DNA of 62,992 nt, filler included, from Stramenopiles sp. TOSAG23-6 (Eukaryota): the NCBI GenBank assembly GCA_900128565.1. It is 9 parts of 9 records of this genome, joined end to end, with 100 filler letters (N's around TTAATTAATTAA, not from the genome) between each part and the next. Parts side by side here need not be neighbours in the genome. Positions count along the whole stretch, not along the records: positions 1 to 9,733 come from LT636355.1; 8 more parts are not named here. One strand, written 5' to 3'. Shown piece after piece: positions 1 through 59,897 of the stretch. The notes under the pieces are model-generated. The model did no database searches, was not told the DNA's origin, and saw only the letters and a list, made by a program, of their open reading frames with translations. A program made the translations under genes and the position numbers. Positions within the stretch are counted from its first letter, which is position 1; every line of letters begins with the position of its first letter.

Positions 1-2291
1 TTCGACCGTCTTCATCCCAATCCATGTGTTTTGGAAAAATATTTCAAAAAAAAAAAATCGTTAGGTACAAAATTTCGTACGAAAAAAAAACGAATTTGAA
101 AAAAAATTAAAACATACATCATCATTGCAGCAGCTTTTAGAACACCACCACCACCACCACCACCACTATCAGGAAATTGATCATCTTTTTTCACACCACT
201 AACATTTTGTAGAAACAAAAGTGGATGTATTGTGAAAAATATTGTTTTGTAAAAAAATCGTTAGGTACAAAATTCCGTACGAAAAAACTTAAATTTGAAA
301 TTCATTGTGAAAACGTACAATATCTCGATTCTCGCAAAGATTAACAAATTGAGCCCCTTTTCGAGCTCCTTGAGCACATAGCAATGTTTCACTATTTGCA
401 ATAATACCTACTGGGTTACCATTAATTTCAGAAAACCCAGTCATTAGAGAATTCCCATATGGATTATGAAAAAATATTTCAAAAACATCTAAAAAAAAAT
501 GTTACGTACAAAATTTTTTTACCAAAAAAAAAAAATACAAATTCGAAATTAAAATGAAAACGTACACTCGCCTTTACATTCTCGAAAAATAGAATCATCC
601 ACAATTCTACTAATTATTGCTTCCATTTCGGGTCTTTTAATTAAAGAAGAATCATTTGGTGGAATTAAATGTAGTAAATCTATAAGCTTTAATTTGGGTT
701 CTGTCACAGAATCTTTTCGCTTCCATAATTTTTGTATCTTTGAATCATATATTGTAAAAAAATATTTTTTTTCTTTAAGAAAAAAAAATTTAGGTACAAA
801 ATTACATACGAAAAAAAAAAAAAATTCAACATTCATGATGAAAACGTATGTAATTTGTTTCTTCAATCAGTTCTCGAACCATTCTCGAAGCATCTAACTC
901 ATCCACTGCCAATTGATCAGTTAAACCAGACCATGAACGGTAAAAAAAAACAATTTCAGAAAAACAAAAAAAATGTTAGGTACGAAATTTCGTATGAAAA
1001 AAAAAANAANTNAAANTNCATAATGAAAATGTACATGAGCAGTGAACGCGTGCACCACCTAAATCTTCGGCAGTTACAATTTCACCTGTAGCTGCTGCAA
1101 CTAGAGGAGGTCCACCTAAAAATATTGTGCCAATTTTGTCCACAATTATGTTTGCATCTGCCATGGCTGGGACGTATGTATTGTGAAAAAAAAATATATA
1201 TAAAAATCATTAGGTATAAAATTTGGTACGAAATATTTTTTTTCCAATTTTTTTTTTTCGAAAAAAAAAGTGAACCTACATGCCCCACCGGCAGTGCAAG
1301 AGCCTGAAACGACTGCAACAGACGGTATACCACGAGATGACATAATAGCTTCATTATAAAACACACGGCCTCCATGGATTATGAAAAAATATTTCAATAA
1401 AAATTCGTTAGGTACAAAATTTCGTACGAAAAAAAAATTCGAAATCGAAAAAAAAATAAAACAAACATGATCTCGGTCAGGAAATATATCTGCTTGGAGC
1501 GGAAGGAACGCTCCCCCCGAATCAACAAGATAGATGTTTTGAATGAAAATATTTCAAAAATTTGATTTTTTTTTTGTTAGGTACAAAATTAACTACGAAA
1601 AAAAATAAATTGAAATGATATAAATAAACATACATAACTGGTAAGTCATTTTCCATTGCGACTTCCTGTGCTCTGTTATTTATGAGATTTTAAGATGATT
1701 TGAGATTGTGAGTCACATGTGTAAAAATAGTAGTATGATACACTATATCACAAATATAGCAGAAATATTTCAGAAAATTGTACAAAGTATTAAAAAAAAA
1801 TGGATTGTGATGAAATACCGCAATTGTTTCTTTACCCCAATGGGGAAAAGAGTACCACCCTTTACCGTTGCATCATTCGCAATAATCATGCAATCTATGC
1901 CACTGACTTGACCAATACCAGCAACAACACCAGCAGAAGGAACTGTCATTCGTGGCTTTCCAGGTCCTTGTGAATATAACTCAAGTCCAGCCAAAGGTGC
2001 AAGCTCCAAGAATTCAGAATTTGCGTCTAGAACCATACGGATTCTATCACGAGGAAGAATTTTTTTGTTCTTCTTGACATGTCGTTCTATAGCTTTCTCT
2101 CCACCCCCGAGGAATGCCACATTAATATGTTTCGAAAGTTCCTCTTTCAAAGCTTTGTTTTTTTTTAAATTATCATTTTGTGAAACACAGTTTAGATCAA
2201 CCGCAGGACCACTTAAAACTTTAAAACGCGATGAAAACGTAGACGTCGAGAATCCACGAGTCAAACGAATCCTAACATTAATTCTCCACAT
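1..2291 (-). CDS. MCCC2: Methylcrotonyl-CoA carboxylase beta-type carboxyltransferase, 3'-truncated; exons 2291-1819, 1672-1634, 1533-1467, 1373-1280, 1175-1035, 932-850, 746-566, 458-319, 224-118, 23-<1
   Basis: The spliced translation gives [63 protein letters not shown] and IPLLFLQN. The N-terminus resembles a mitochondrial presequence. All exon phases are consistent. Confidence 0.9.
24..117 (-). mobile_element. Introner-like family intron, GT-AT, 94 nt
   Basis: AT|GTATGTTTT...TTTCGTACGAAATTTTGTACCTAAC...AAAACACAT|G. Confidence 0.8.
225..318 (-). mobile_element. Introner-like family intron, GT-AT, 94 nt
   Basis: Removal gives GAT ATT|CCA CTT (D-I-P-L-L-F-L-Q-N). Confidence 0.9.
459..565 (-). 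mobile_element. Introner-like family intron, GT-AT, 107 nt
   Basis: Removal gives GAG T|AT GGG (E-Y-G). An internal AG at 489-490 would also be in frame but would insert 10 aa. Confidence 0.8.
747..849 (-). mobile_element. Introner-like family intron, AT-AT variant, 103 nt
   Basis: TAC|ATACGTTTTC...ACAATATAT|GAT keeps the frame between the flanking exons. Confidence 0.75.
933..1034 (-). mobile_element. Introner-like family intron, GT-AT, 102 nt
   Basis: Removal gives VHCS-W-SGLTD. Confidence 0.85.
1176..1279 (-). mobile_element. Introner-like family intron, GT-AT, 104 nt
   Basis: Removal gives GCA T|AC GTC and restores TAGGAYVPAM. Confidence 0.9.
1374..1466 (-). mobile_element. Introner-like family intron, GT-AT, 93 nt
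   Basis: Removal gives CAT|GGA and restores [13 protein letters not shown]. Confidence 0.9.
1534..1633 (-). mobile_element. Introner-like family intron, GT-AT, 100 nt
   Basis: Removal gives AT|C and restores [11 protein letters not shown]. Confidence 0.9.
1673..1818 (-). other. Canonical GT-AG intron, 146 nt
   Basis: CG|GTATTT...AACAG|A restores KKQLRAQE. Confidence 0.85.
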
Positions 2292-8610: not shown

Positions 8611-9733
<1,123 letters not shown>

Positions 9734-9833
9734 NNNNNNNNNNNNNNNNNNNNNNNNNNNNNNNNNNNNNNNNNNNNTTAATTAATTAANNNNNNNNNNN
9801 NNNNNNNNNNNNNNNNNNNNNNNNNNNNNNNNN
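9734..9833. other. Artificial contig linker; also at 19532-19631, 29320-29419, 39100-39199, 48852-48951, 58596-58695, 60063-60162 and 61529-61628
   Basis: Identical 100-nt N-run/TTAATTAATTAA/N-run spacer with stops in all frames; contig lengths decrease in order. Confidence 0.97.
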
Positions 9834-9863: not shown

Positions 9864-12800
9864 TTATGAATCAATTACAGCAGCAACACCTTTAATTTGG
9901 CTTGCATCAACACCTTGTTGTTCTTTTGCAAATCCAAGGAATATTTGTTCAAGTGTTGTTTGTCCAACACAATATTCACTTAGTCCAAGGGCATCTTTAT
10001 TACGTTCCAAGAGGCCAAATACTTTTCCAAGAGGAACCTTTGTGTCATTTCCAACATCCATACTACCACCATTATTACCCATACTACCACCATTATTACC
10101 AATACTACCACCATTATTACCAATACTACCACCATTATTACCCATACTACCACCATTATTACTACCACCATTATTACCAATACTACCAACATTATTACTA
10201 CCACCATTATTACCAACACCCATACTACCATTATCAACATCCTCACTAAATGGTAAAGAAAGACGTAACGAATTACCATGTTGTTCAACTAAAACAGCAT
10301 CAGGTGATATATTTTGTTTACACCAAGCAAGTAAATTATCAAGTACATCTTCTGCAATCCACCACTCAATAAATGATGGTACATNAACACTATTTTGCTG
10401 CAAAAGNAGATCTTGTAACACCCATGAAGATGATCCAGGTATACTGAATGATTCATATCGTGCAGCGTTACCTAGTTGTTGACATGCATTTAAAAGTTGA
10501 TTTGAAGGTATTTTTAAGTCTGTAGCACTTTGTGCACCGTCAATATTTCCTGTTGTATTTGTTTTTATATTTCCTACACAAAGTGACTGAATTGCTGTAA
10601 TTAATTGTACACTTTTCTCTCGACTACCTGGAGCAACGCGAACTTCTAATTGATATCCATGTCCATATCTATCCTTTAAATGCTGCTCTGATCCAATGCA
10701 CCGTAATCGACCATCCACCATGATTCCAATACGGGTACAAAGCGCAGAACATTCTTCCATTGAATGAGTCGTCAAGATAATAGTAGCCTCCCTATTCTGT
10801 GTTGATATTTCTGATATGAGAGACCACATGAAACGTTTTGCCACTGGATCCATTCCTGCTGATGGTTCATCCAGAAAGATAATTGGTGGTGCACCAATTA
10901 ATGCAATGGCTACACATAATTTACGTTTATTTCCTCCAGATAATGATCCAGCAGATTTATCTGCAAACTCAACTAAATCCATCTTTTTAATTTTCTCTTC
11001 AATCTCCATATTCAATGAATCGCCTTGAACACCTTTAATCATTCCGAATATTCTTAAATGCTGTCGAACAGTCACCTTTGGTAACAATGCATTGTGTTGC
11101 GGACAATAACCAATAAGTCGTCGGACTGCAATCTGCTCACTTAATATATCTCGGCCACCCATAGCTGCCGTACCAACAGTAGGTAAATGATCACCACTCA
11201 ACATTCGAAATACTGTCGTTTTGCCGGCACCATTTGTACCTAAAAATCCAAACACTTCACCACGTTTAATACCAAACCACATATCTTTAACAGCAACCTT
11301 TTTAAACCTTTTTCCATCTTTATTTTTTGATCTAAATACCTTTCGAAGTCCGCGTGCTTCCACCATATTCTTACCAATCGATTGTTCCTTCACACGATTC
11401 CGTTCATTTATAACATCGGCATCTTCACCGTGAAATGGAGCATCAACAATATTCGGTTCCATACATGAACACAAAAAGCGTTGTATAGAAGGTAGAGATA
11501 AGACAATATCAATTGTAAATGCAAGTAACGGAAAGAGTATTGCACCCAACAACATACCGCGTATTTCAGGCCATGCAACTGCTTCATCCATGCCAGATAC
11601 TGGAGCTGTACTGTTATAACATGATGTTGTAATATTCACAGTACATTCACGACAATTTAAAGGGAGATCCGCATGATACTCTGTCGAACCTTGAGGTGCG
11701 CCAGCAATAAATCCCTTTTTTACAAGATCTCTTGGACACACAAGACATTGGTGGTACTGAGAAGCAAGAAATCCTTTCAATGCTAATGAAAAGAATGCAG
11801 ACGGTAAGGCAAATTGAGGAAGGAAACTTACAAATTTCTTTGACCAAAAACCATACTTACAAGTACTTTCAACAAGCTGTAACGTTCCCATTACAATACA
11901 CAATACTATACTCATCACACCAATACTTATTGTAACTGTAACAGCTGTACTGGGTGACTTGAACAAGTATGAAGTTAAATATGATAATCCAAATACAGCT
12001 GGACCATACAAAAGTATTGCAAGTCTTGTTGCATCCCAATTATCATCAGCAGTCGTTGTATATGCAGTTAAATCTTCATCCCAAATATTAAATATCAATA
12101 TGGTCCCCCATGCAGGAATCATATACAACAACACATCCCATAACCATGCTGTAAACCAATATGCTGTCAATGATACACCAGACACCAATTGTTGATGTTT
12201 GAAACCCAATGATCTCTCACGTACAATAAATTCAATCACGGGTGCTGGAATAAATGAAAAGGCTAAACCAATTAAAAATACGACAACAAAAGTTAAATTT
12301 GCTTTCTGTTCATCTTCCAATTTAATTGTTAATGGTAATGGATGAAGTGTTACATCAATTGTTCCAGCATTTCCAGGGTCAAACATTTTCCAAAATGATG
12401 ATGATAATATAGACTGAAATAATGGAACACCAAATGTCGCTGTTGAATTTGTCATTAAAAGCAAATTATAGAAATTATCATCTGGTACTGAACCTTTTAG
12501 TCCTTCTATTGGCGGCAAAATACCCCATGCGCCATATATACTATCAGGCCTCTCGGATTTCAAATTCAACATCCACTTCGATGTTGCACATTGCCAAGAG
12601 CCTGAATCGTCAGCGCCTGCACAAACATCAGTTGTCCAATTATTATCATCACCTCCGCCCTCTTGATCGCCATACAATGAAGATGAACATATTTCGCCCG
12701 AATACTTTGTAATTAAATCAGTGAAACTAGTACTACTGTCTACATAATGACTACCCTGTAAACTGCTACCTTTTGTTCCTACGGTTGTTCGTGCTGTTTT

Positions 12801-15800
12801 CATTGCAACAGATTCGGATGTGCCTACATATGCATTTGGAAATAAAGAAGAACCTGCCTTCATACTACCAGACCCACGAGGGTTATATGCACCTGTTGAT
12901 GGCGTGATTGCACTATAATATGGATTAGATGTTGTCAAGGCATACAGACCAAGTGTTACAAGTAATAAAGGCAATACAACCATAAATAATATTGATTTCA
13001 TATCTCTAATAAACCAATAAAATCGTTTCATAAGCATCGCTAGAATATGTAATCCTAATGAAAAAGAACTTGATGTACTGCGCTTCTTTATCTCTTTGTT
13101 AAATGCCAATGTATTTTGGCGAACTAGCTTCTTTTTTGCACCATTTATTTCATGTTTGGTATTTGTTTCGTTATTATCAACTACCTTTTGATTATTATCA
13201 GTACTTTTTACATCATCATTATATTTTTCTTCTTTTGCAACAATACCTGTATCTTTACTTTTACTAACACTTGCTTGTTTCCTATGTGCCCCTTGCGCTG
13301 ACTTGATAAATACTTCTTCTACTGTTGTTACACTGACATTAAATGTCTCTAATTTATTTGGATCTTTTGCTTTTAACTGTTCCAATTCTGTAAACAAAGC
13401 CTCAAACGAATGACTCGCGCCAAGCGGCAATTGAAAAGAAAGTTCTTGGCCGAAATTACTCAATACTTTAGCTTCGGGTACATATTTTTGTACCAACAAA
13501 GTAAGATCATCAAGACACGTAGATGATGTAGCAAGATTAGGTGCCGTACATATCATAGAATATCCTACACCATACCGCTGTTTAAGAAACATTGGAGTAC
13601 CGCAACATATCATCCGACCTTCAGACATAATACCAATGCGATCAGCTAATACATCAGCTTCTTCCATTGAATGTGTTGTTAATAAAATGATACGACCCTG
13701 TTTCGATTTTTGTAACATATTCCACGTTGAACGTTGAGCAAATACATCCATTCCACTTGTTGGTTCATCAAGCATCAGTACAGGTGAATTGCCTATTAAA
13801 GCAATAGCAAGACACGCCTTTCGCTTTTGTCCTCCAGATAAATTACTTGTCTTTGCATGTGTCTTCTCAGTCAATGCTACGCCATCTAATACCTCCTTGA
13901 TTGCAGAGTCGCGTTTGGCCTTTGGTACGAGCTTTATATTTGCATATAACTGTAAATGTTCATTCACTGTTAGTTCATCATATAAAACATTCATCTGCGG
14001 ACAAATTCCCATTAGTTTACGAATCTCTGTCATTTGATTACGTATTGATAAACCAAATATCGTTGCATCACCTGACGATGGGGCAATAAGACCACATAGT
14101 TGAGAAATTGTAGTCGTTTTACCTGCGCCATTATGACCCAACAATACAAATATTTCGCCCTTGAAAAATGCTGCATGTAAATTATCAGTGGCTACTTTTA
14201 TACTCCCATCAGCAGTTTGAAATTGTTTCGTTAAACCTCTAACATGCACACAATCATTTCGATGTAATAATGCTTCCTGCTGTTTACTGAGGCGTTCAAA
14301 ATTTTCAGTATCAGTATATGTTTGATCGCCATATAATAGCTCAATATCATTAGCATCCACTAGATCTTGCTTTTCATGTTGACTTTCGATATCATTTATA
14401 GTATCAACGCTTTTAGACTGGTCAACAGGTGTCACAGATGATGAGCATTTTGAGTAAAACGATGGTAGTAAACAAAACCATGGAGGTGATCGTATACCAA
14501 ATTCTGAAGGCAAAATTCGAGATAAATACATACCCAACACAACCCAAATTCCTGCTCCAATGTATAACATCTGCATTGCCAAACCCATACTATAATTTTC
14601 TTGTAAATCATAATACGATGACCATGTTACTGGTACAAATTTACCATTGACCAGTTTACAATAATCAATTGCTAAGCCTAGTCCTGTTGCTGGGAGTAAC
14701 GAACAGAGAGCTTTCAATGATACAGACCATGTAGGTTTCACAGCAAATGTTGGAATAAATCCCACAAAGAAACTTACAGCACCAATAACTGCAGCTGTAC
14801 CTGCTTTATCGAAGCATTGTGATACCATAAAGCAGAAGCATGAAGCATTCAATCCAAACCCAAAAAATAAGAAAAACATCATCAATATTGGAACATCAAA
14901 TAAGCCATCAATAACATCTTTTGTCAATAATATTGCGCATATTACACTATGAAATGTAAACCGTTTCATATATGATGCAATCCATGATACTGCCACTGAG
15001 GAAGGAAATAATCCCATCATTTTCATACCTTCACGAATACGTGATTCTTTCTCGTATACTAACCGTTTCACCATAAAAAAAACTGGTATAGTAAATGCCA
15101 CAACAAATAAGGTAGTCATAATCTCAGGAATTGGACTCGCATAAAATGGATCAGTCCTGAATTCAGTTGATGGAAATGGAGTCACTCGAATACTTTGAGG
15201 GAAATATGTGTGAATCTTCATGAAATCAAACATGGCTTTATCAATTTCTGTTTGCTTATCTTTTGCAAGTAATCCATATGCTGTATCAAATGCTTGGTGA
15301 TAAGATGTTTTTGTATCCGCGCCATCGAGACCAATCATTGTTTTTATTGCTTTCTTATGCTCATCATTGCCTAAACTTCCGTATCCACATTTATCATTAT
15401 CCCAATCACATCGACGATATTCCCAATAACACTCACAGCTACTGGGACCTCGACAGTTCCTTTCACATGATTCTTCAGTCATATATGACACAGATTCTGC
15501 TGCTTTACCAGTACCTGCAGGACAAGCTTTCTCCGAGTCTTGTGTCGGCGCCTTGCATTTATCTGCATCACGCCAATGGATTTTACATTTATAATTCTTT
15601 TCGTGAAATAAAGCGCCACCAAATACGGATAGATTACACACTGCAGCAAGTGAATCAAGATATGTTGTCACCTGATTATCAATGTCTTTCTGATCACATA
15701 TACCATAATCAAGTAATGTTGATGGTGTTGCATTCTTCAGCTGCTTGTTAATATAATATTTATCTACTAGTAACTGTATTGTAGATAATGCAGGTAATGG

Positions 15801-17369: not shown

Positions 17370-17903
17370 TTTGCAACCTTTGTAATAAAAGTGCCAGATT
17401 ATTTAAAAACTAGAACGAAACAAAATCAAAAGATAGTGTAGTAGACTCTGTTCAAGAAGCCAATTGGTCGCAGCTTATATAGATACGTTTGCGATACGTT
17501 TTAAGGGCCGGTCTCCGCTAAGAGATCGGCCGCGGACATCAAATCGGGTCGCACTATAACGTANCACTTTCATTTTTTCCTTATCGAACGTGTCTCTACG
17601 ATTCAGTAACGTGATAATTATATTGTATAAAAAGTTGTGTTGACCCTTCCTATAGGTCTTATAAAGATCTCCAGGTATTGGCCTTGCTGTAGGTTATTTC
17701 TATCTTTTGCTATTAGTATTAACCTAGTCTCCCTTCATTATACCTCAACCACATATTCAGAATCTACGCGCAAGTTTATATTCTAAGCATAGTTAGACTC
17801 CTATCACTGTTTAGTGCAATTATCTATCAAAAGTCAGTGCCAATACCATTTGCTGTAGCGCCATATATTTTTTTTTGCCCAAAAGTGTTGAGATTAGGTG
17901 AAT

Positions 17904-20116: not shown

Positions 20117-23100
20117 TTAATGTTGGCTTGACTTTGAAATTTCTCGGAGTCTTCGTCTTGCTCCCGACGGTAGGCGCAAAGCTCCACCTCTACTTTCAAC
20201 AGGAAGCATTGTTAAAGCAAGAACTGCTGGCGGACCCGCTGATGCAACTAAACGGCGCCAGTTTCCATAGGGCATCTCACGTTGCAGCGGTGGAGCATCT
20301 TTACCACGCGCTACTTCAATCTCATCTAGAAGACTAGAGAGAAGTTTTGGAGGGATTCCAAAGTGAGCAGCATCAAAGTGAATAATTTTGGTTTTAGTAT
20401 CATCCCGGATACCATTTTTATTACTTTCAGTCGAATCACTCAAAACATTTGATGCCTCAGCCACCAAAGCAGCAGCGGCAATATTTACAGGTAAGACCCC
20501 AACACTGCGCTTTTTAGAGGTCAACCCAGCGGGGCTTGCACCTGTTACCTCTACAGCAGATAGCAAGAGTGAGAGCCAATCACGACGCTCTGAACGCGGT
20601 GTATAGTGAGAAATATTTTCATTGCATTCAAAAGAAGAATTCATATTTTGTTTGGATGAAACTGGAGGACCAATCAGCCCAAGACGGACAATAACAAGTT
20701 GTATTTTCCCACGAGCTGTATTTTGGAAAAATATTTGAAAAAAAACGTTAGGTACAAAATTTCGTACGAAAAAAATATCGAATTTGAAAAAAAATAAAAC
20801 ATACATGCTGCAGCAGCAAAGAGATGTTCAGCAACCATTTTACTACGGGCGTATCCACTACCTAAAGACATTGCACATGATGATGGAACCAATGAGTCAA
20901 CTGGGTCTCTCCAGTCTGCTACTTTCGCTGCCGCGGCAACTGGAATCACACTCATAGTAGATACAAATACAACAAGTGGTTTTGTATACTTGCTAATGTA
21001 ATTGTTGTTCTTATTTACATTGATTGCTCGCGAGGAACTTGGAGATATGAGGTCAACTAGAGCTGCAACAGAGGCAACATTAGTTGCACGAAGTGAATTA
21101 TAGGGTCGAGCATGATCAACTGATGCACCGCTATGTAAAACAGCGCCAAAGTGCATTGCCTGAATGGTTGAGAAGTCAGATGTTGAAAGACCAAGTTGAG
21201 GTTTTGACAAATCATATTCAAACACAAGCAAACGACCAGACGTTTTTGCTTCATTCGTTGCACAGCTTTTACAAATACGATCAAGTGGGCTACGCGTCAA
21301 AACTACTATGGTTTTCCATGAATTATTCAAAATTGCATCAAGAAGATGAGGACCAAGGAATCCAGTGGCTCCAGTGAGAAGTATACAGGGTGATTTTACT
21401 TCATTATTGCTTACACATACTTTTTCTACTGGAACCTTTTGAAGAGCTTGCCAAGCAACATCGAAAGAAACCTCCTCTTTCCAAAATATGGTAGATTCCG
21501 TCTTGGTAGATTCCGTCTTGGGTATGCACTGCGCATCGATGTTATCAAAGTTTGACTGCTCAATTGCTTGCACAGTATCATTCTTGAAAGAATGGATGTA
21601 AAACTGCGCCTTTCTTCGAAGATCCCAGGGTAAGAGGGCATATATATCCCTCACGGAAATCCTTTCAATAGACATTGAGGTTGAATTTCTTATATATTGT
21701 TGATCCCAAGCAGCTACAAGTAAAGTTGCAGCAATACTGTCACCACCTAATAATGTCCACCATTCTCCAGGATCTAATTCCTTGGAATTTACCAAGGCTT
21801 CAGGTAATAACTTTATTGCCTCTTTATCAGTTTCTGCTACTAAAAACGCTAATATTCTTTCGACTACATCATTACTACCATGATCTATATTGTTACTAAT
21901 GCTTGAGTTCACTGTTGACGTTGTCGTTGTAGTAATGATACCTGGGTGTCGACTTGCAATAACATTTCGCCTGAGCTTTCCATGAGAAGAACAACAGCCA
22001 CTTGTCTCATCCCACGGACCACTGTCAATCGAAACACGATCAGGACACTCCCAACTTCTTAGTCCAGCTTCAGATGCTGCTAATCTCATTTCTCTAATAA
22101 TTTTACGAGCTACATCAGCTGTTGTTTTTACCGGGACCTCGTTTTGTTTTACTGTAGAAATGCTCGTATTTGCAACAATGACAATAGCAATTGGTTTCAC
22201 ATCACCAGGTCTTGCAATTAGCACACAACTTTCGATAGAGGGACAGTGCTCTTCATATACCCATTCCACAGTCTGCGGTGAAAAAAATTCACCATTATCT
22301 AGTTTGACGGTAAAGCTAACACGTTCACAAACTTCTAGAAGTTTTCGTTCTGGTTCATTCTCATTTCCAGGGCGAACAATCCAACGACCAAGGTCTCCAG
22401 TATGGAACCATCCAGCAGCATCCAATACCACTGCATCGGTGCCTCCATTTTGTAAAGGTTTCTTCACTAGAATCTCACCTAAATCATCCCGGTATTTGTG
22501 TTTTAACAACTTGATATGTACACCTTTCAGTGGAACACCATCGCGTGTAATGCCACCAATTTCAGTCATGGCATATCCATTCGAAACAACAGCGTTACCA
22601 CCGCCTTTACCACCTTTTCCAAAACATTTTCGAAGAAAATCTAATAATGGTGGAGGAACAACTGCACCACCAATAGCCACTAGTCGAAGACGAGATCCAC
22701 CAAGACGCCGAATTATTCCAAAAGCAGTTGTTGTAGCTTTTTCAACAGTTTTACTTTCTTTACATAAATTATGTAACTCGATTTCATACCGACGTTGATA
22801 TAGAGAATAGAAGCGCGGTGCTGCTGAGAGTGTGGTTGGTGCAATAGCAAAGATCTGATCAAGAATATCTATTTCTCTACACTTATTATCGCTTTTTCTA
22901 TCACTAGTACCTCTCGGATTTGTTTCACTATTATTAGATATATTACTATTACTATAACACACACCGCGAGTATTACAAAGGCCAAGACGCCCGCCATGTA
23001 GCAACTCACCCCATGACGTTCTACGAGCTAACGCATGAGACAATGGTGCAAATAGTGCAGCACAAGATACTCGAATACTTCGACGAGCAAGAGCAAGTCT

Positions 23101-27311: not shown

Positions 27312-29319
27312 ATGACGGACTACATGGCAGAACTGATTACAGAGACAGGGTTGGCTGTGCCTGCACCGAATACTATGCGAGGGCATCGTACTCCTATTTC
27401 TGTAAACGCTAAAGATGGGGACACGTTTGCATACGGCGCAAAAAAGATGACAGTCATCCGTAGTTTACGTACGCCGTCTACTTCTTTGGTTGACACGAAT
27501 CATCAAGAAACAGTCCGTGTTGCTCGATTTGATAAAAGTGGTTCTTGGGTAGCAAGTGCAGACGTAACAGGAGTACTCCGCGTGTGGGCTTGGAAACGGG
27601 AGGATCATTTATTGAAAAAGGAAAGTCGACCAATTGCAGGAGAGGTTACAGATTTGGCTTGGGATTCCGACTCAAAGCGCATCGCTGTAGTTGGAAAAGC
27701 CCGGGGATGCAAAGGCAAAGTTGTTGGATGGGACACAGGATCGGCGATGGGTGAGCTTACGCAACACACTAAAAATATCAATTGTTGTTCTTTCCGTCAA
27801 TCTCGTCCGTTTCGTGTGTGTACTGGAGGAGAAGATAGAAATGTCATTTTGCATCAAGGACCTCCGTTCAAAGTGCTTTTGCGTAATAAGGCCGGACATA
27901 AAAATTATGTAAATGCTATGGCATACAGTCCTGATGATTCTGTATTTGCTACGGGATCATCAGATACTCGTATTCGCATATGGGACGGGAAAACTGGAGA
28001 AAAACTAAAGCAAATGGCCTGTACGTTTTTCAACCAAATGTCTACTTTTTTTTGTTACGAAATTTCATACCTAACATTTTTTTTTTCCCTTTTCAAATGA
28101 ATGACTAGAATGTATCGTTCAATTTGAAGTTTATTTTTATACCACATTCTCTGTATCTAAACATATTTTCGAATTGTGCATATTTCTTTACTGTACACGG
28201 AAAGGTGAAAATCCTGGACACGTAGGTTCCGTGATGGATTTGTGCTGGTCAGAGGATGGAAAAACAGTAATTTCCTGTGGTAGTGACAAAAAACTTTGCT
28301 GGTATGATCTTGAAACACGAGCGTGTTTGAATGAGTGTATTGTCCGTGATAAAGTTACCGTGACTTCGTTTCCAGATCTAAAACCGCAAGTCCATCATCA
28401 GCTGGTTAGTGTTTCTCGGTGCGTTTTCATTTCAATTTCGAATTTGGTTTTTTTTTCGTACGAAATTTTGTACCTAACGATTTTTTTTGAAATATTTTTT
28501 CATAATCCATGTGCGGCGATAAATTATTAGTAGGCTCTCTTGCTGGAGATATCAATGTCATTGAAGCTACAGATGGCACATTTGTCGACACTATATATAG
28601 TCATACATCTATGGTATCTAAAAATAGTCTTGTACTCGCATCCGATGGGAAAACAGTTTATTCAGGAGATCTTGGTGGTATGATTTTCTGTTGGGATGTT
28701 ACTGCTGATTACCTTCAGCTTTCACGATTACCTGGTTATGCTGTGCCTGACGATAACCGAATGGCACATGATGGTTGTGTGCAAGGTATCGCAGCTCTTA
28801 CTAACAATTGTCTTTTGTCTGTTGGTAATGATGACACGTGTCGTGTTTGGATGAATGGAGTCTCAGCAGGTGTTGGGGATAAACTTGGAGGCCAACCACG
28901 TTCTATGGTGTCTGTTGGTCCTTCTGATAAGGCTACTATGGCCATTATTGTGACTTCGAAAAATAAAGTTCTTACGGTCAATGGGTCAGGGAAAATTATT
29001 TCATCATTCGATTTACCTTATTCTGCTAGTAATGCTCTTGCTGTGTCTGTAACTGGAACTGAAATTGCTATTGGTTCATCTCAAAGAGGTAGAGGTGTAA
29101 TGCATAGATATGAACTTGTTGATGGCGTAATTGGCAATGAGCTTCAAAAAGTCTGTGGTAATGCAGAATATTATGAGAATGCTGAAGACGCAGAGTATTC
29201 TCCGGATGGCACGATGTTGGCTGTTGGCTGGGGAAAAGGAGAAGTTTCGCTATATGAAAGTGTATGTTTTATTTTTTTTCAAATTCGAATTTTTTTTTCG
29301 TACGAAATTTTGTACCTAA
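27312..29319 (+). CDS. WDR1: Actin-interacting protein 1 / WD repeat protein 1, 3'-truncated; exons 27312-28020, 28199-28418 and 28511-29261
   Basis: WD40 repeats with RPFRVCTGGED, GPPFK and WDTGSAMGE. Confidence 0.85.
28021..28198 (+). mobile_element. Compound family intron (two back-to-back degenerate copies), GT-AC overall
   Basis: Two core-like motifs (TACGAAATTTCATACCTAAC and TACCACATTCTCTGTATCTAAAC); removal restores the frame. Confidence 0.65.
28419..28510 (+). mobile_element. Introner-like family intron, GT-AT, 92 nt
   Basis: CG|GTGCGTTTTC...ATAATCCAT|G, in frame. Confidence 0.85.
29262..29319 (+). mobile_element. Introner-like family copy truncated by contig end
   Basis: Consensus 5' half and core. 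Confidence 0.85.
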
Positions 29320-29419
29320 NNNNNNNNNNNNNNNNNNNNNNNNNNNNNNNNNNNNNNNNNNNNTTAATTAATTAANNNNNNNNNNNNNNNNNNNNNNNNN
29401 NNNNNNNNNNNNNNNNNNN

Positions 29420-29473: not shown

Positions 29474-32400
29474 GAATCAAAATTTTTCATGGACAGGCCA
29501 AAAATTATTACAAATGCATGAAATCGATATGACGCATATTTTGCCAAGTAAAAAACATATTACAGGTTCTGTTTCTATGTACGTTTCCATGATAAATTTC
29601 AAATATGTTTTTTTCGTACGAAATTCCGTACCTAACAATTTTTTTCTAAAATATTTTTTCACAATACATACATGTACAATCAGTATTACCTAAAATACGG
29701 GATTACGTTGCTTCTTCCATTACATTTCAATGTGAAGGTATTGGTCTTAGTATGATTGATAGTAAACCTCGTGAAGTTTTATATTTCAGTATTGATGGTT
29801 TAAAATGTGAACATAAGCAGTTTCGTTCTGGTCGATCTAATTTTAAATTTAGTATTCGTCGTGTTCAGATTGATAATTCTCTACAAAGCGCAGTATATCC
29901 TACAGTATTAGCTTGGAAATATGACAGAAAAACCGAAAATGTACAAAAAAACAAAACAATCAAAGATAAGAAGAAAACACAACAAAAAACTGCTGGTTTT
30001 CGAAAGCACACGCCTCTACCCGAGGATGATATTATTAACATTACTATTGACATGGACACACCTGCTCCAGGTTATACACATTTTTATTTGTTAGATTTTT
30101 GTTTTCATCCGATGACTCTTCACGTGGATTTGGAATTTATACTTGCCTTACTTGGTTTGATTCAGAATGTCATGACAGATACATCAGATGATACTAAAGT
30201 TAATAAGTCATTAACCTTGGACAATCAGCATAAACTATTAGCAATCGCGTTGTTTACACCACTCGTTGACACGAATCATTGTATCAAATCTACTATAGTT
30301 GATGGAGGTATTTATGTAGATAAATTAGAAATCGGCGATATTGAGTTGGACATTACTGTAAAAGTTGGCGACGGTGACGCTTTAAGTCATCAGTTGAATG
30401 TGATGAATATTGACGGAGTAACAAGAACGTTTGTAAATGTATTGGCGTCTATGGTAGCAAATATAGATAACGCACCACTTCGTCTTAAGTCGTATTCTGA
30501 CAAAGACAACGCAACAACAATAGGTACTCTCAGCAATAGTTTGATTAGTTTTTATACTGCAAGTATTTTAAGACAATCTTTTGCTCTTCTTGGGTCAATT
30601 AGCTTTCTTGGAGACCCTGGTGGTTTAGTGAGAAATGTAGGAACTGGAGTCAGTGATTTTTTTATGATACCCGCTGAGGCTTTACAAAGTGGCAATTTGA
30701 AAAATGCTGCTCAGGCAATGGCATTAGGAACATCATCTTTGCTAAGTCACACAGCATATGGTGTGACCCACTCACTTGCTTCTGTTGCGAAAACAGCAAA
30801 TATGGGTTTGACAAAGCTTGCACTTGATGATAAATATAGTCAATCAAGAGCCGAAGAAAATCGTGAAAATCAAAAAAATAACCTCACATTTCTTACCACT
30901 GATACAACTGTAACGAAAGGAGCAAGTATGTTTTTATCATCAATTTTAAATTTATTTTGTTTCCATTGAAAATTCCATATGTAACGAATTTCTGTTCTAA
31001 AAATATGTTTTCACAGTACATCCACTCGTAAAGATCTTGATGCGGCAGTGCAAGGATTTGGTAGAGGTTTCTTACAAGGTGTTACAGGATTATTTACAAA
31101 ACCAGTTGATGGTATAAAAAAGGAAGGTGTATTAGGAGGTGTAAAAGGAATAGGAAAAGGCGTACTAGGATTAATTGTAAAACCCACAGCTGGTTTACTT
31201 GATTTATTGAGTGGGACTCTGGATGGTGTAAGTCATTTTGCAAAACAAGAATACCATGTCACCCGTGTCAGATTGCCACGCGTTATAGATTCTCAAGGCA
31301 CAGTAACATTATATAGTGAAAGAGAAGCCATTGGTTGTACTGTCATGACGATGAAGCAAAAATTGTCTACAAAGGAAGTTTACATATACCATTCTCTTGA
31401 ATCTATATTGATGAGCGAAGGTAGCGTTAAGCGACTGGCTTTAGTCACAAATATGTTTGTTTATTTGTATGAAATAGCTACAAAGTCTGCAGGAGAATTA
31501 GAGGAAATTTGGAAATTAAAAATACATGGTATTAATGAGATATCTATCTTTGGAAAACAAAAAATAATTCTGAATGAATCAGAAAGTGCAACACAAACAA
31601 AAGGAGTGGTGAAGTCATATACAATTGAGTATAATACTAAAGAATCTAAAAATGATGAGAATAATCTTATTTTGATGATTGATGTTTTGACTGCTTTAAC
31701 TGGAGTTGAAGTTACCGACACAGCAACATCAAGTGTCACAGGAACATCAAGTGACAAAGTGGACAATTCTTCGGAGATAGAATTAAATTCAGAAAATAGA
31801 GGCATCCAAACTGATTCTATACAATGGTTGAGTATTGTCCAGGCTGAAAAACAAAAATTGAGAAATATTGAAAGGATGAAACAATTTGAATACAGTAGAA
31901 AAATTGTAAAGGATTCTGTGCACAAATCTATTTTGAAACAATTTTTGCACCAACCTGAAACAAATGATAATGGGAATACGTGGAATATGATTTCACCGTG
32001 TAAGTTTTCAAAATTGTTCTTTTTTACCATTTTTGAATTTTGTTTTTCAAGAAATTTTGTACCTTACAAAAAATAAAACTTAAAATATATTTTCACAATA
32101 CATCAAAACGAAGAAATTCTAGAAATTCTAAACGAAGAAATTCTAGACATTCTAAACGAAGAAATTCTAGACATTCTAAACGATTGTCAGATACGTCATC
32201 TATTAACTCTATAACATCACCGATGTTCTCTATTTTGAATGAAAAACCAGATGTCATTATTGACAACGCTTTCCGGCAAATGAAGTCTACAAAGCTACAC
32301 GTAGAAGCTTCAAAGGAAGGAAGAGGTTTATTTCTATCTTTGATTGACCTCAGAGTGTTACGAGCTGAACGAAAACACGATAGTTCTAAAAAAGGATTGA

Positions 32401-35514: not shown

Positions 35515-35679
35515 GTAATAAACTAGTATATAACTATAATATTTCGGAATTTTATTTTATTTTATTTATGTGTTGTGAAGAAAATGTCATAATAAAAAAT
35601 AGCAACTTTTTCAAATTCGATTTTTTTTTCGTACGGAATTTTGTACCTAACAAATTTAAGTTTTTTTTTTTAAATAGTA

Positions 35680-37366
35680 TTATTGGTCAGCAAGCTCTTG
35701 GAGATATCGACCAAGTAACTTAATTCCATTGAAATAATTCGTACAATTAATCTTTTCATTTTGAGAGTGCGCCATATCATCACCTGCTCCAATAGGTAGC
35801 AACAATACTTGTTTCTTTAGTGCTTTTTCAAATACTATTGTGATAGGTATAGAACCACCTTCACGTGTCAAATCTGGTTCAATGTATTGTGAAAAAATAT
35901 ATTTTTTTAAATTTGTTAGGTACAAAATTTCGTACGAAAAAAAAATAGACAAAAAAAATGAAAACGTACATTCCGTAGACTTTCTTAATAGCTAATCTAC
36001 CAGCTAAAAAATTGTTCCCATCTGGATTTGTCACCCAAGCAGGGGATCCTTTATCCATAATTAATGTATTTTGGAAAAATATTTCAAAATTTTCTTAAAA
36101 AAAAAATTGTTAGGTACAACATTTCGTACGAAAAAAAAAATCGATTTTTTTGTTAAAAAAAAAATTAAACATACATTCATATCTGTTAGGAGAATCTAGT
36201 TTACACCATTCAGAAGCAATATGTGCTTGAACGAGTTCATTGACACGAGATGGAGTCATATCGGGAACTAAGCGCAACGAAAACTTTGCAATCACTTTCC
36301 GCGGAATAACAGTTTTCGAACCACATCCATAAAAAGCGCCTTCAATTCCATGTATACTCAGCGTAGGAAACCGCCATCGATGCATCAATACATTTTTTTT
36401 TGTAGTATGAAGTAGTCTATTACTAATACCATTCACTCCAACATCAATTTGATACTGTTTAAGATCAAAATCAATTGTATTATAGGTATCTTCTTCTTCT
36501 TGAGTCACTGGTTTTACATCATCATAAATACCAGCCACACAAATTCGTCCCTGAGAATCAACTAAACCCGATAACAAAATGGTTAAATCCGTCATAGCTT
36601 CATGAACACTTCCTCCAATAACGCCACTATGTAAATCCTTTGAAGAGCATTCTACACTCAAATGAAAATATGAAAGACCTCTTAAACCGTACGTTAAGCA
36701 TGGCTTTGTACACCCCAACCAATAATTATCACTAATACAACAAAAGTCAATTGTCGAAGGATCCAAAAACTCTTTTGATGTAGCTAATGATTTCACTAAA
36801 GTTGGGAGACCAACACTTCCACTCTCTTCCATACCTTCAAAAATACACTTCACGTTTAATGGTAAGTCAATACCACAACGTTGAAACGCTTCAATCGCCC
36901 AGAGCCAACAAAGCATTGGCCCCTTATCATCAGTAGATCCACGGCCATAGAGCTTACCATCCTTTTCAGTCAAAACCCAAGGATCTGTTGACCATCCATC
37001 ACTGACATAGGCGGGTTGAACATCTAGATGACCATATACTAAAATTGTCTTCTTTTCTGGATCATTTCCGAACTGGGCACAAAGTACTGGTGGGAGTGCA
37101 ATTTCATCACCATTTGCATGTTTTTGCATTCCTAAATACTCTAATTTTGTCGTTGCACCAAGTTTTTTACACCATGATTGGCAAGTCTTTACCATCTTTA
37201 CAACTTCAGGCCTTTTTTCTGGTTCCGCTGATACACTGCGAATGGCCACAGCTTCTTCTAATCGTTTTATATAACTATCAGTATTTGCATCTACATATGC
37301 CGAAAAAATATCAAAATTTTTTTCTTTCGTTGAATGTGCCACCTTTTGCCGCTTATTAGAAGACAT
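35680..37366 (-). CDS. CNDP2: Cytosolic non-specific dipeptidase (M20); exons 37366-36175, 36063-35970 and 35881-35680
   Basis: [42 protein letters not shown] and AHSQNEK. Confidence 0.93.
35882..35969 (-). mobile_element. Introner-like family intron, GT-AT, 88 nt
   Basis: Removal restores [16 protein letters not shown]. Confidence 0.9.
36064..36174 (-). mobile_element. Introner-like family intron, GT-AT, 111 nt
   Basis: GAA T|GTATG...AATACAT|TA, in frame. Confidence 0.88.
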
Positions 37367-39099: not shown

Positions 39100-39199
39100 N
39101 NNNNNNNNNNNNNNNNNNNNNNNNNNNNNNNNNNNNNNNNNNNTTAATTAATTAANNNNNNNNNNNNNNNNNNNNNNNNNNNNNNNNNNNNNNNNNNNN

Positions 39200-45663: not shown

Positions 45664-48600
45664 TTAAATATGTCTTATTGGAGGTAATGTCAATGATCGC
45701 GATGTGTAATTTTTTGACTTGACTTTACGTATATTTGAAATCATGGAATCTTTTGACCATGCAACATTTGAATGAATATTTGAATGAACATTTGAATGAA
45801 CATTTGAATATCGGTGTAGAGGTTCCGATGAATGTTTATCCACAGCTGCACTTATTTCATCAAAAAAGTTTCCAGCAAATGCAACACCATCATCATCAAT
45901 TTTATGTGAATCATGTCCATACCCATCAAATTCATGTATATATAAATTACTCTCGGTATTTCGAGTATTTTGAGTATTTTGAGTATTTTGAATATTTTGT
46001 TTTTTGTTTTTTTTATCTCCTCTTTTCGCTTTCGTCCTCGACTTTATTTGTTTTTTACGATTTTTATTATTACCTCTCTTAAATTTTCTTTTACGTTTCA
46101 TCATCAACAATAAAGTTTCTCTATTATTTATTCCCCATTCTTTACCAAGGGCAGCTAATTTTGATTCCTTTTTTGTATTTTTAAGGGTGTTTTGGTTGAG
46201 TTTTACTTCCTGTAAGCCTTCATTGAGAACTGTACGACCATCACTAACATGATTACTATTAAAGTTAGGGTTACTTTGTTTTGGTAAAAGAAGTATATTT
46301 GACTTAGGGTTTGTGGTCATCGACTTGGAAGTAGGTGCAGTTTTCTTTAATGAGACATGACGGTATGACTCACTTTGATTCGATGATTGCATATCATCAA
46401 AATCATTAAAATCATCAAAATCATTAAAATTATCAAAATCGTCATTGATATCTAAGTCATCATTGATATCAAGAAATGAATTAATATCTACTTCATCATA
46501 ATTAAAATCATCTTCATCAAAATATTTTGCACCGTCTCGTGCCGTAGACAAAACCTTCCGTAGAATATACCCTCTGAAAAGACTTTGTATACATACAACT
46601 GCGGCATTCATTGTGGACTTGTTTTTCTTAATTTGACTATTATGTACCTCATTGTTGACCAAAGCTCGAAGTTCAAAGGCACCTCGGGCTCCACCACCAC
46701 GAGCACGCGATCCTCGATTGAGCGTAGCAGTGAGTGTTGCAGACGATTGAGGTGAACCAGGTAAAGCACACGCAACAGCTTCTGCAGCAGATCGTAATTC
46801 ATTTGCTTTGATATGGAATTCTCTTTCAGAAATTTTTCCAATATCAAGAAAATGATTTAATTGAGTTAGTGTAGTATTGACATTATCTCTATCACTAACA
46901 CTTTCTAGTGTAATATTAACATTATCTCTATCACTAACACGTTCTAGTGTAGTATTGACATTATCTCTATCACTGACATTTTCAAATATACTTTTTGTTA
47001 TTTTTGAGATTGTTGTATGCTTAGTTTCATCATTTTGTTTTGTATGTTTTTTTTCATTATTGTTTTTCTGAGTTATTTCCAAATTCCCTCCCCATGCTAC
47101 TACAGGAGTTCTATAATGACTATGTTTTTGTTTTTCTTCATTTTGAATTTCAGTACCTATACTTGCTCTACTTTTTTTTTTTTGTCTTTGAATTTGTTCC
47201 CTTTTTTGCTGCTTTTGGATTTCATCTGCTTTTTCTTTTTCTTTTCGTAAACGTTCCATTTCAAATAATCTTTGTTGTTCTGCTTCTTTTTCTTTTCGCA
47301 AACGTTCCATTTCAANTAATCTNTNTTGTTCTTTTTCTTTTTCTTTTCGCAAACGTTCCATTTCAAATAATCTATGTTGTTCCGCGCGTTCCAATTCTTG
47401 TTGAACTTTCCGTTGATATATCTCCTTTCTTTTCTTAATTTCTTCACGTTTTTGCTTTTCTAATTTTAGTCTATTTTGCACATATTCTTTATGCTTTTCG
47501 TGTCTCATTTGTGCTACAATTTTCCTTGCCATTCTTCCACGCTGATTTGTTTGAATGAGTATGTATTTTGGAAGAATATTTCAAAAAAAAAAGATGTTAG
47601 GTATAAAATTTCGTACGAAAAAAAATTCATACAAAAAAAAATAAAACATACATTGCAGCAATTCTTCTTTGGATTTGTTTTTTTTTTGATTCTCTAAATA
47701 GCTTTTGCAATCCCAAAGATGCAATTATTTTCTTTTTATATCTAATTTGTTCTTGGAATCTAAATACCTTTCTATCATACATTTCCTTTCTATATTTTTC
47801 ACGTCGGAGATTTTCTTCTTTTTCCAAACGTTTTCTTTGTAACATATTTCGTGTTTGCTCTTCTTCTCGGTGTTTTTCTCTTTTTTTTGCCATCGTTTCA
47901 CGTGCGAGTCTCCAACGTTCTTCATCTTTTTGAAGCTTTATAATTCTATTTTGTATTTCTTTTTCTTTCAATTTTTCTTCTTGGCGTTTTTGTTTAANNN
48001 NNNNNNNNNNNNNNNNNNNNNNNNNNNNNNNNNNNNNNNNNNNNNNNNNNNNNNNNNNNNNNNNNNNNNNNNNNNNNNNNNNNNNNNNNNNNNNNNNACA
48101 TACATATTCCTCAGCATTACATTTTGCTTCTTGTAATCGAAGATCCCGGGCCACCTTAATTTGTATCTCCAACTCTTCATCCTGTTGACGATGTTTTTCA
48201 TCAATTTTATAGTTGTCTTCGATTATAGTGTTCACAGCTGTTTGGCATTCACTTACAATATCATGTATTGATTTTTCATGTTTATTTTGTAGATTATTTT
48301 TTTCAGCTAGGGTTAGGTCTATACTAGGGTTAGTGTTTATATTTATTTTTGTGTCTTTTGTACTATTTGATGAAAGTTCAACAATATTGTCATTATTGTC
48401 ATTTTGTACAGAATATATTGTCGATTTGGGTATTGTATTTATTTGATTAGTGGTCATTTTTGTCTCCTGTTCTTCTACAGTCTTCACAAATGAATGTGTA
48501 CTAGGGTTAGGGCTTGATGGCATTGTGGTTGATGTTGTATTTGTTATTTCTTTCTGTTTGTCTATATTAGTTGACATTGGTAAATCATTTTCATGTTTTA

Positions 48601-48951: not shown

Positions 48952-49692
48952 GGTACAAAATTTCGTACGAAAAAAAATCGAATTTGAAAAAAAATAAAAC
49001 ATACATATTTTTCCCTTTTAATCTACTAAAATTCCAATTAAAACTTTGAGATTTTTGTGATCCGACTCCCGTATACATGTATTTTAGAAACATATTTCAA
49101 AAAAAATTCTAAAAAAATTTGTTAGGTACAAAATTTCGTACGAAAAAAAAAATCGTTTTTTTTTGTAAAAAAAAAATAAAACATACATTGGAACATAAAT
49201 AATTAACCACTCAGCATCTGTGTTTTCTATCTTTTTTATCCATTTTCGAATTTTTGGCTCTACATCTTCTTTATAAGTATTCATATCCTCTGCTTTTGAT
49301 ATAAATATATGAAGATATGGTTCTTGATACCAAGTGTCAGGATTTGTAAACGAAGGCCAAGATGGATCGTTTTCATGCTTATAGTGCAATTGCAAGGAAC
49401 TAATATCACGACAAATTTTGGATGGTGTCATTTTATTTGGTGACAGAATGAAATTTGAAGGTTTACCCGATATACCTGGTATTTTCTTTAGGGGAGAAGA
49501 TAACGATTGATTTTCATTCTGACTTGCTGACCAATGAAGAGAAAGATGTACGTCTTTAAGAATTTCTCCAATTCCAAGTTGAAGAAGTGTTGGCCAAAGT
49601 GACCACTCGTCATTATACGATATTGCAACCCGTGGGCATAATTTTGACTCACTGTCAACTAATGAAGAATAACTTTCAGGGAGAAATGACAT
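48952..49692 (-). CDS. TRAPPC10: TRAPP II subunit TRAPPC10/Trs130 N-terminus, truncated; family introns 49077-49186 (GT-AT) and 48952-49004; mirror copy at 57855-58595 (+)
   Basis: PYLHIFI..ED..TYK..V.PKIRKW.....EWLIIYV resembles the Trs130 N-terminal domain. Confidence 0.6.
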
Positions 49693-58695: not shown

Positions 58696-59897
58696 TTCAG
58701 AAAAAGAAAAAAAAAACATACATGCCCAATAACTGCCATGAATCTGTAAATAATTCAGATACATAAAGTCCTAGACTACCTGCTATAGATGCAATCATAA
58801 TACTATATCCTAACCATTGACCACCAACATGTCGTGCAATTTTTGGAAAACTACCCTCATCCCAATCTTGCCATGCAGGCTTATTTACCCCAGCGGCAAT
58901 TGCTAATGGAAGAATTGTCATGAAACTGACAATAAGTAAAGCAAATAATAATCCATTGGGTACATTCTGTTTCGCATTTTTTATTTCTCCTGCACTTGTT
59001 GAAACGGCATCAAATCCTGAATAACTCCAATATAAAATACTTAATAAATTTCTATAATTGGAAATATTTGCATTGACATTAATCTCATCATATTTTATTT
59101 CAATAGTATCATTTGGACCTTTACTTACAAACAAATTTCGTATGTCCACTTGAGGAAGACCAATCATTATAAACAGTATAAATGGTACAATGACTATAAT
59201 TGAAAGAATACTCATATATAAGCCTATTTTCTTCAATAATAAAAGATTAGGTAAAGCGAAAACATGTACTGTAAAAAAAATATTTCCAAACATTTCAAAA
59301 ATTGGTTTTTTTGTTAGGTACAAAATTTCGTACGAAAAAAAAAATTGAAATATATTTTTTTTTTTTCAAATTTTGAAAACCTACAATGGCAAGAGAAATT
59401 GTAGCTATATTTTTCCACAGAGGTGATAATTCAACGTCAAATGCGGATGAACATGAATGATATACAATGACAGGATAAATTGCATTGTCAACAACACCAC
59501 TACACCAAGACCACCAAGATTGTTGGATACCCCAAAATGTACCAAATGCTTCAGTCACCCAAATACTATAGCCACCGTCATCTGGAAATGTTGTGGAGAG
59601 CTCAGCAGTCATAAATGCAACTGGAGTAGCCCAAACAAGTGGGAAAAGTAAAAGACCTAAAATACCAGGTAAAGGACCCGCTGATGATATGACACCTTCT
59701 GAGCCGTACGGTCCACCGCTTACACTAAAAAATGTCAGACTTATCACAAATAATCGACCTAAAACACGTTTATGTTGATGTTGATCACCACCACCACCTG
59801 ATTCTGAAGGAGAACGACTGCGAGAAAATTCGTCTTTTTCTCCTTTTAAAGTATACTCCTCTGGATATTCATGTATATACTCTTTAGATGAAATCAT
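58696..59897 (-). CDS. APC-superfamily polyamine/amino acid transporter, 3'-truncated; exons 59897-59385 and 59263-58722
   Basis: FFSVSGGPYGSE, AELSTTFPDDGGY..WV..AFG and WSYSGFD...AGE. Confidence 0.88.
59264..59384 (-). mobile_element. Introner-like family intron, GT-AT, 121 nt
   Basis: ATT|GTAGGTTTTC...CAGTACAT|GTT is in frame; the AG 5 nt upstream of the end would frameshift. Confidence 0.85.

Follow-up and report, generated by a model that had tools for sequence, protein, structure and literature searches.

Introduction

Bursts of intron gain are currently best explained by introners, and the families described are mostly GT..AG. In the introners of Micromonas and Aureococcus, one short family supplies many introns in unrelated genes, with the copies in the sense orientation of the genes and equipped with splice signals. 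Those of Micromonas, Aureococcus and large surveys have canonical splice motifs, some with clear target-site duplications and terminal inverted repeats (PMC9860276, PMC12130899, PMC7789003). Here we describe what appears to be new, a family of apparent introner-like introns whose 3′ end is AT, not AG, in Stramenopiles sp. TOSAG23-6, an uncultured marine protist. The window (the whole stretch of DNA analyzed, 62,992 nucleotides including filler) joins nine pieces of assembly GCA_900128565.1, and its first piece begins with a minus-strand gene for methylcrotonoyl-CoA carboxylase beta (MCC-beta) at 1-2291, with its ATG at 2291.

The favored reading, to which we give a probability of about 0.72, is that the copies are spliceosomal introns of one introner-like repeat family that would be cut at the family ends, GT..AT. 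The family shares the above-mentioned properties of supply to unrelated genes, sense orientation and splice signals, and its host is a marine stramenopile as is Aureococcus. It differs in the AT at its 3′ end and in its borders, which have a direct repeat of 0–4 nt and a terminal inverted repeat of only about 5 nt. Huff et al. 2016 is reportedly a mechanism paper on introner elements.

Introner surveys begin from annotated introns, and families with unfamiliar splice sites are dropped unless transcript-confirmed (PMC9860276, PMC12130899, PMC7789003), so that an AT-ending family would probably be missed. A full-text literature search, which covered survey supplements in small part only, returned no description of such a family. 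In word searches, a paper on single-cell genomes of uncultured stramenopiles had introns only in its methods, twice, and no splice, non-canonical or repeat wording, and a paper on a cultured MAST-3 relative had no intron, splice, non-canonical or introner wording.

Two other systems depart from GT..AG on a large scale. Introners of the dinoflagellate Amoebophrya have inverted repeats of 8–20 nt that form a hairpin between the two ends, and their terminal dinucleotides are not fixed (PMC7789003). Like the present family, they are repeated non-GT-AG introns with short direct repeats over the exon-intron boundary, by which gene prediction is misled. On the other hand, the present family has uniform GT..AT termini and retains a branch-like motif and a classical 5′ site. 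In the tunicate Fritillaria borealis, 95% of introns depart from GT/AG at both of their ends, which has been linked to divergent U2AF paralogues (PMC13326754). Non-AG 3′ ends are spliced routinely there, as is predicted here, but Fritillaria is of an animal lineage, and in the present family the 5′ GT is kept and the last base alone differs.

Results

In silico removal of eight repeat copies from the MCC-beta gene

The 157-aa translation of exon 1 has methylcrotonoyl-CoA carboxylase beta chains with PF01039 as its named relatives, and tblastn with orthologues also places the gene here. Besides a single ordinary GT..AG intron, the gene contains the repeat family in eight copies, each 93–107 nt long, from 1633 down to 24 (introns A to H, Table 1). 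Eight family introns had been proposed by a first-pass annotation, and both its outer limits (24 and 1633) and the three intervals it quoted (1176-1279, 1374-1466 and 459-565) match our profile placement exactly.

When the eight copies are removed at the family ends, the remaining 1348 nt form an open frame of 449 codons (chance ~4e-14). The frame contains every motif listed in the first-pass annotation, which had claimed such a restoration of the conserved protein and had suggested alignment with MCC beta orthologues as a check. In this alignment the spliced protein is colinear with the gibbon and coral orthologues, with zero gaps at junctions A–G. With a scoring profile of 109 orthologues, it obtains 547.3 bits and aligns to profile positions 11–387 of 535, as a carboxyl transferase domain. 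The C-terminal part falls outside the window.

Within the protein collection, P0001 alone is nearly identical; some of its stretches match at 100%, including read-through of intron A. By this identity P0001 is plainly a gene model of the same DNA. Its score with the same profile is 339.2 bits, which is low because the elements are read through or trimmed using GT..AG sites. P0001 also drops 18 conserved residues within exon 1.

Two further observations concern the coding potential of the locus. A (GGT)7 run at 143-165 (−) gives a seven-glycine insert in exon 9, where orthologues have a gap. Intron B (1374-1466, −) is stop-free and in frame if retained, adding 31 mostly hydrophobic residues without truncation of the protein.

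Homology at the intron ends

Intron ends were placed by profile alignment, with intron A shifted 2 nt by eye. They were then compared with all donor/acceptor pairs that lie up to 30 nt from the family ends, stay in frame and add no stop, making 9643 profile-scored variants. For the ordinary GT..AG intron, used as an internal control, the true junction tops its 972 variants.

None of the variants scores above the family end for introns A (0/1036), B (0/1215), C (0/1227) and G (0/1193). One of 1204 does so for D, by 0.5 bit, and two of 925 for F, by 1.2 bits. The numbers are larger for E (33/1023) and H (369/848), H being uninformative with only 23 nt of exon 10 in the window. Introns A, B, C, D, F and G have just two shifts in common, 0 (GT..AT) and −1 (TG..CA). 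Several shifts yield an identical product because the upstream exon often ends in the intron’s last bases; in a recount its final base is T for 20 of 24 copies, and its final two bases are AT for 14 of 24. An AT..AC reading of the borders was rejected, as intron G permits shifts 0 and −1 only.

It is supported by this homology that MCC-beta itself fixes the family-end junctions of introns A, B, C, D, F and G, six of the eight. For these six, the first-pass claim that the conserved gene constrains the junctions stands; for E and H, the scan does not settle it.

Ordinary cryptic GT..AG sites near the elements could be used instead, as the public models assume, if the proteins tolerate insertions and deletions. 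Introns B, C, D, E and F do have in-frame GT/GC..AG alternatives, and P0001 and another public model described below, P0123, are built that way. However, the best GT..AG pair is lower than the family end by 4.1 bits for B (+4/+4), 21.3 bits for C, 28.1 bits for D, 8.9 bits for E (+4/−26) and 10.1 bits for F, and at such costs of 4–28 bits invariant carboxyltransferase residues are lost or replaced. The stretches that would become intronic still encode conserved in-frame residues, and no in-frame GT/GC..AG pair at all is available to A and G within 30 nt. Only for H is the best GT/GC..AG pair higher, by 0.5 bit. The use of cryptic sites is thus very unlikely, and two results given below, on the first AG after the core and on a second gene, also oppose it.

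Individual alternatives noticed in the first-pass annotation fared as follows. The next AG of intron C (+9 nt) was said to harm a conserved motif, and indeed costs 21.3 bits. For intron B, the next AG (+4) does shift the frame with a fixed donor, but the in-frame +4/+4 pair had been overlooked. The internal AG of intron F, about which a caveat had been given, is in frame at −30 and is 13.6 bits lower with the same donor.

Copies in other genes are sense and mostly in phase

A repeat search of 1-2400 returned the family of eight copies. At E<=0.01, a profile built from core-anchored copies matches the window 40 times; eight of these matches are at 15-1641 (−), with E from 4.7e-10 to 1.3e-22. 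A 13-mer core, allowing up to 1 mismatch, occurs 33 times versus 0.15 expected from shuffles.

All 24 complete copies are sense to flanking long frames (two-sided 1.2e-7). Twenty of them are informative, having at least 30 open codons on either side, and 18 of the 20 are in phase at the family ends, whereas one third is the chance expectation (P=2.3e-7). The first AG after the core, which cryptic splicing might use, would keep the frame in phase and open in no more than 4 of the 20. Intron phases 0, 1 and 2 are all represented. The same pattern occurs in at least 10 other genes with Pfam domains, and the domains of copy-bearing genes include NAD_binding_4, AA_permease, Cys_Met_Meta_PP, DHHC, TRAPPC10, peptidase M20, VPS13_C and WD40. 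As with introners, many similar copies are thus found at intron positions in unrelated genes.

MCC-beta is dense in copies, with eight versus 0.96 expected (P=7.5e-6; 2.7e-4 allowing for all windows). For six of these eight the nearest relative lies in another gene, so these six are separate insertions rather than products of local duplication.

The strict sense orientation argues for a strand-specific, RNA-level process, and so bears on another explanation, precise programmed DNA excision with the assembly representing the unprocessed genome. Internal eliminated sequences of ciliates are removed at the DNA level, are bounded by TA and occur irrespective of gene orientation. The present elements resemble them as short, AT-rich elements that interrupt coding sequence and need exact removal, and excision would also agree with the short inverted repeat formed by the ends (TGTAY...RTACA at one-base shift) and with the finding of no spliced RNA. 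But orientation would be irrelevant to DNA removal, while here every complete copy is sense and bears a 5′ splice-site-like end and a branch-like core, and the borders (..T/GT...AT/.., slashes marking the ends) are not TA-bounded. No programmed DNA excision is known to us in stramenopiles, which also counts against it. We consider DNA excision highly improbable.

Several copies or their absence deserve separate mention. An uninterrupted 2331-codon frame of an ABC transporter at 10410-17402 (−) has no family copy, so insertion or retention is very uneven across genes. In the DHHC palmitoyltransferase gene, 43141-43302 (162 nt, two cores) and 43477-43683 (207 nt, three cores), both on the plus strand, are to all appearance internal duplications or nested copies. 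Partial copies at 35605-35671, 53401-53483 and 53661-53751 (all +) lack one or both ends and lie just past the ends of long open reading frames (Brix-domain and RhoGAP genes); they may be in 3′ untranslated regions, with the sense orientation kept.

Anatomy of the family and its putative splice signals

An alignment of 19–20 complete copies has three conserved blocks. The 5′ block is GTA.GTTTT (GTAYGTTTT), with conservation reaching position +9, and resembles the classical 5′ site GUAUGU. The central block is a T tract followed by an invariant T-rich core ending in TACCTAAC. The 3′ block is AAATA-TTTTT..A.AATACAT (terminal ..AYAATACAT). The distance from core end to intron 3′ end is 31–49 nt and includes a T tract, and a second branch-like motif, CAYAAT, lies 5–7 nt before the 3′ end.

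Pairwise identity among copies is 61% in median and ranges from 46 to 87%, and the 5′ end, core and 3′ end are still conserved. Conserved signals amid such divergence suggest selection on the signals. At the profile-placed ends, GT is the first dinucleotide of 23 of the 24 copies, the exception being intron E with AT, and 23 end in AT, including a copy at 28021 that is misplaced and out of frame. The remaining copy ends in AG (20716-20804). The family therefore lacks the canonical GT..AG or GC..AG borders of described introners.

Folding of 14 copies was no better than that of shuffles for 13 of them (z from −1.71 to +0.42), with one at −3.86, and RNAalifold on 19 copies gave 0 pairs. An end-pairing hairpin or other conserved RNA fold was rejected on these grounds. 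In this the family is unlike the introners of Amoebophrya, as no 8–20 nt inverted repeats pairing the ends were found among the copies.

The same introns could be removed by a minor (U12-like) or altered spliceosome that chooses the 3′ site by position or by the 3′ block, an explanation that differs from the favored one in machinery only. Among 66 non-canonical U12-type introns, 7 are GT-AT and 12 are AT-AT, and these pairs are described as competent for U12-type splicing (PMC1557818). In Physarum, which has gained unusual introns on a mass scale, 17% of the non-canonical minor introns are GT-AT (10.1101/2020.10.12.336362). The pairs found among the present copies, GT-AT (most), AT-AT (E) and GT-AG (20716-20804), are all in such U12-type lists, and the extension of 5′ site conservation to +9 also speaks for a minor spliceosome.

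The U12 5′ site consensus is RTATCCTT, and the branch motif TCCTTAAC lies about 10–20 nt from the 3′ end, without a pyrimidine tract. The family agrees with this consensus at 7 of 9 positions of the 5′ site and at 6 of 8 of the core. However, GTA.GTTTT departs from it at +5 and +6, TACCTAAC is farther from the 3′ end (31–49 nt versus ~10–20 nt) and long T tracts follow it, and Rfam has 0 matches in the window. Moreover, known U12-type cases are scattered single introns that form no repeat family. Removal by a minor or altered spliceosome is unlikely, although among the rival explanations we would give it the most weight.

Sequences outside the family were also examined for its signals. An ordinary GT..AG intron of 141 nt at 18171-18311 (+), between in-phase frames, contains a 13-mer (18224-18236) that is one mismatch from the family core. 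This core motif may be the organism’s general branch signal, or the 13-mer may be from an old family copy. A relaxed profile gave chance-level matches only on the ordinary introns 1673-1818 and 18171-18311 (E of 54 and 2.1), and no family descent is claimed for them. A scan for non-family introns via flanking open frames, with 19,017 candidates, gave no signal, and the family core had 0 matches among viral contigs.

A second gene and the public gene models

The junction scan was repeated on a Cys_Met_Meta_PP gene with a profile of 46 full-length homologues. For its copy at 9490-9588, the family end is at the top (0/1168 variants higher), and the best GT..AG is 14.9 bits lower. Removal at the family end thus restores a conserved protein in this gene as well, against the use of cryptic sites. 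The 25-aa exon that follows the copy had no match among PDB sequences, and this exon and three other exon translations had no significant Pfam match at E<=10.

In the gene models P0122 and P0123 (8611-9663, +), the element is read through or trimmed. All three public models examined, P0001, P0122 and P0123, are therefore wrong at the copies, by read-through or by loss of conserved residues to forced GT..AG sites.

Environmental data and the assembly

Seven seawater polyA RNA runs contain small shares of this sequence. When RNA contigs of four of the runs were compared with 1019-2400, parts of exon 1 were covered at 0–1 mismatch. One contig, X4 record 29, matches 1567-1799 with one mismatch, having intron A, exon 2 and the ordinary intron contiguous. 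Since this contig is independent and environmental, the gene arrangement is no assembly artefact.

A 39-nt family core (1399-1437) is found in hundreds of contigs in two seawater RNA runs, with summed depths of ~55,000 and ~40,000, and these diverge beyond the core. The family or its relatives are abundant in the environmental RNA, or the DNA, that those libraries carried. A metagenome search for close relatives returned 80 loci, the best at 57% identity, none close enough for empty sites or dN/dS.

Between each piece of the window and the next stand 44 N, a 12-base all-frame stop linker and another 44 N. A family copy adjoins seven of the 16 piece ends, so that the assembly breaks at this repeat. 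The piece 48952-58595 is an inverted self-duplication, which looks like an amplification chimera rather than biology.

Such chimeras and breaks at family copies would fit another explanation, that the gene copy is dead and the elements are transposon insertions that go unspliced, or that they are an amplification or assembly artefact. Against this, 449 codons are open (at the chance level given above) while the copies have diverged to a median identity of 61%, as expected from the first-pass view that the gene is not a pseudogene. The complete copies are all sense and 18 of 20 informative ones in phase, the pattern is repeated in at least 10 other Pfam-domain genes, and the environmental contig has the same order of intron A, exon 2 and the next intron. 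We regard a dead copy or an artefact as scarcely credible.

Table 1 Positions of features in the window
Feature	Position	Strand	Basis
MCC-beta exon 1	1819..2291	-	ATG at 2291; PF01039 homologues; tblastn with orthologues
Ordinary intron, GT..AG, 146 nt	1673..1818	-	internal control; top of 972 in-frame variants
Exon 2	1634..1672	-	spliced model
Family intron A, GT..AT, 100 nt	1534..1633	-	profile match and junction scan
Exon 3	1467..1533	-	spliced model
Family intron B, GT..AT, 93 nt	1374..1466	-	junction scan
Exon 4	1280..1373	-	spliced model
Family intron C, GT..AT, 104 nt	1176..1279	-	junction scan
Exon 5	1035..1175	-	spliced model
Family intron D, GT..AT, 102 nt; contains five single N	933..1034	-	junction scan
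Exon 6	850..932	-	spliced model
Family intron E, AT..AT at family ends, 103 nt; exact junction ambiguous	747..849	-	junction scan
Exon 7, lineage-specific linker	566..746	-	spliced model; P0001 sole match in protein collection
Family intron F, GT..AT, 107 nt	459..565	-	junction scan
Exon 8	319..458	-	spliced model
Family intron G, GT..AT, 94 nt	225..318	-	junction scan; protein kept by shifts 0 and -1 only
Exon 9, with Gly7 run	118..224	-	spliced model
Family intron H, GT..AT, 94 nt	24..117	-	best family match in window (75 bits)
Exon 10 start, cut by window end	1..23	-	without alignment to orthologues
Family copy, O-acetylhomoserine sulfhydrylase-like gene, GT..AT	9490..9588	+	junction scan; exon matches PDB chains at 2.2e-98
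Family copy ending AG (GT..AG), between in-phase 849- and 198-codon frames	20716..20804	-	NAD_binding_4 domain reaches exon end
Family copy, WD40 gene, GT..AT, in phase	28419..28510	+	frame test, Pfam
Family copy, GT..AT, in phase	29579..29669	+	frame test
Family copy between 425- and 350-codon frames, in phase	30926..31021	+	frame test
Family copy, VPS13_C-bearing gene, in phase	32000..32103	+	frame test, Pfam
Family copy, peptidase M20 gene, in phase	35882..35969	-	frame test, Pfam
Second family copy, same M20 gene, in phase	36064..36174	-	frame test, Pfam
Family copy, in phase	47561..47651	-	frame test
Family copy, TRAPPC10-like gene, in phase; duplicate at 58354-58479 (+)	49077..49186	-	frame test, Pfam
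Family copy, amino-acid permease gene, in phase	59264..59384	-	frame test, Pfam
Inverted pair of open reading frames in 48952-58595	50181-52376 / 55171-57366	- / +	
Inverted pair of open reading frames in 48952-58595	52484-53533 / 54014-55063	+ / -	
Inverted pair of family copies in 48952-58595	49077-49186 / 58354-58479	- / +	
Piece separators	9734-9833, 19532-19631, 29320-29419, 39100-39199, 48852-48951, 58596-58695, 60063-60162, 61529-61628		

Discussion

Sense orientation, in-phase placement, a conserved 5′ site with a branch-like core, and open exons beside drifted introns together point to spliceosomal removal from RNA at the family ends. We conceive that the family would have spread through genes of the organism, each copy bringing its own splice signals, either as a DNA transposon with a tiny duplication or by reverse splicing. 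GTAYGTTTT would serve as the donor and the core ending in TACCTAAC as a putative branch site. The pre-mRNA would be cut exactly at the family ends, with AU in place of AG as the 3′ terminal dinucleotide.

Several results weigh against this reading. No RNA contig of the four runs bridges an MCC-beta junction in 1019-2400, the listed joints linking cores of different loci with short sides, and X4 record 29, the sole contig over an intron-exon border, is unspliced. No transcript-derived protein spans a junction either, as a query with exon 7 found P0001 only among longer proteins and none of similar length. In the literature, GT..AT is rare in major-type introns and is chiefly a tolerated minor-type pair (PMC1557818).

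The intron ends themselves also leave some room for other choices. Junctions E and H are not settled by the scan, E being ambiguous because it sits in a variable linker. The in-frame GT..AG rival of intron B is just 4.1 bits lower, and introns E and F have internal in-frame AG alternatives. Two of the 20 informative copies are out of phase at their profile-placed ends: that at 9490-9588, where the next exon is merely 25 codons, and that at 28021, whose 3′ end is degenerate and where the frame would be kept both by an AT end at 28111 and by an AG end at 28129.

If the copies are nevertheless spliced as favored here, the family would show spreading introns with a non-AG 3′ end coexisting with ordinary GT..AG introns in the same genes. 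Recognition of the 3′ site would become open to test in nature, whether through U2AF, through an interaction of the intron’s first base with its last, or through a minor-like spliceosome. Proteomes of such uncultured protists may be distorted at the family copies.

A wider proposal is more tentative, and we hold it possible but rather doubtful: a lineage-specific rule may govern most introns of this organism, with an expanding introner family cut at a 3′ AU that is read via the ..AYAAUACAU block by an altered U2AF or a minor-like spliceosome. If this rule is true, standard annotation would mis-model every copy-bearing gene, as in the three models checked, and the organism would offer a natural system for the second step of splicing without a terminal G.

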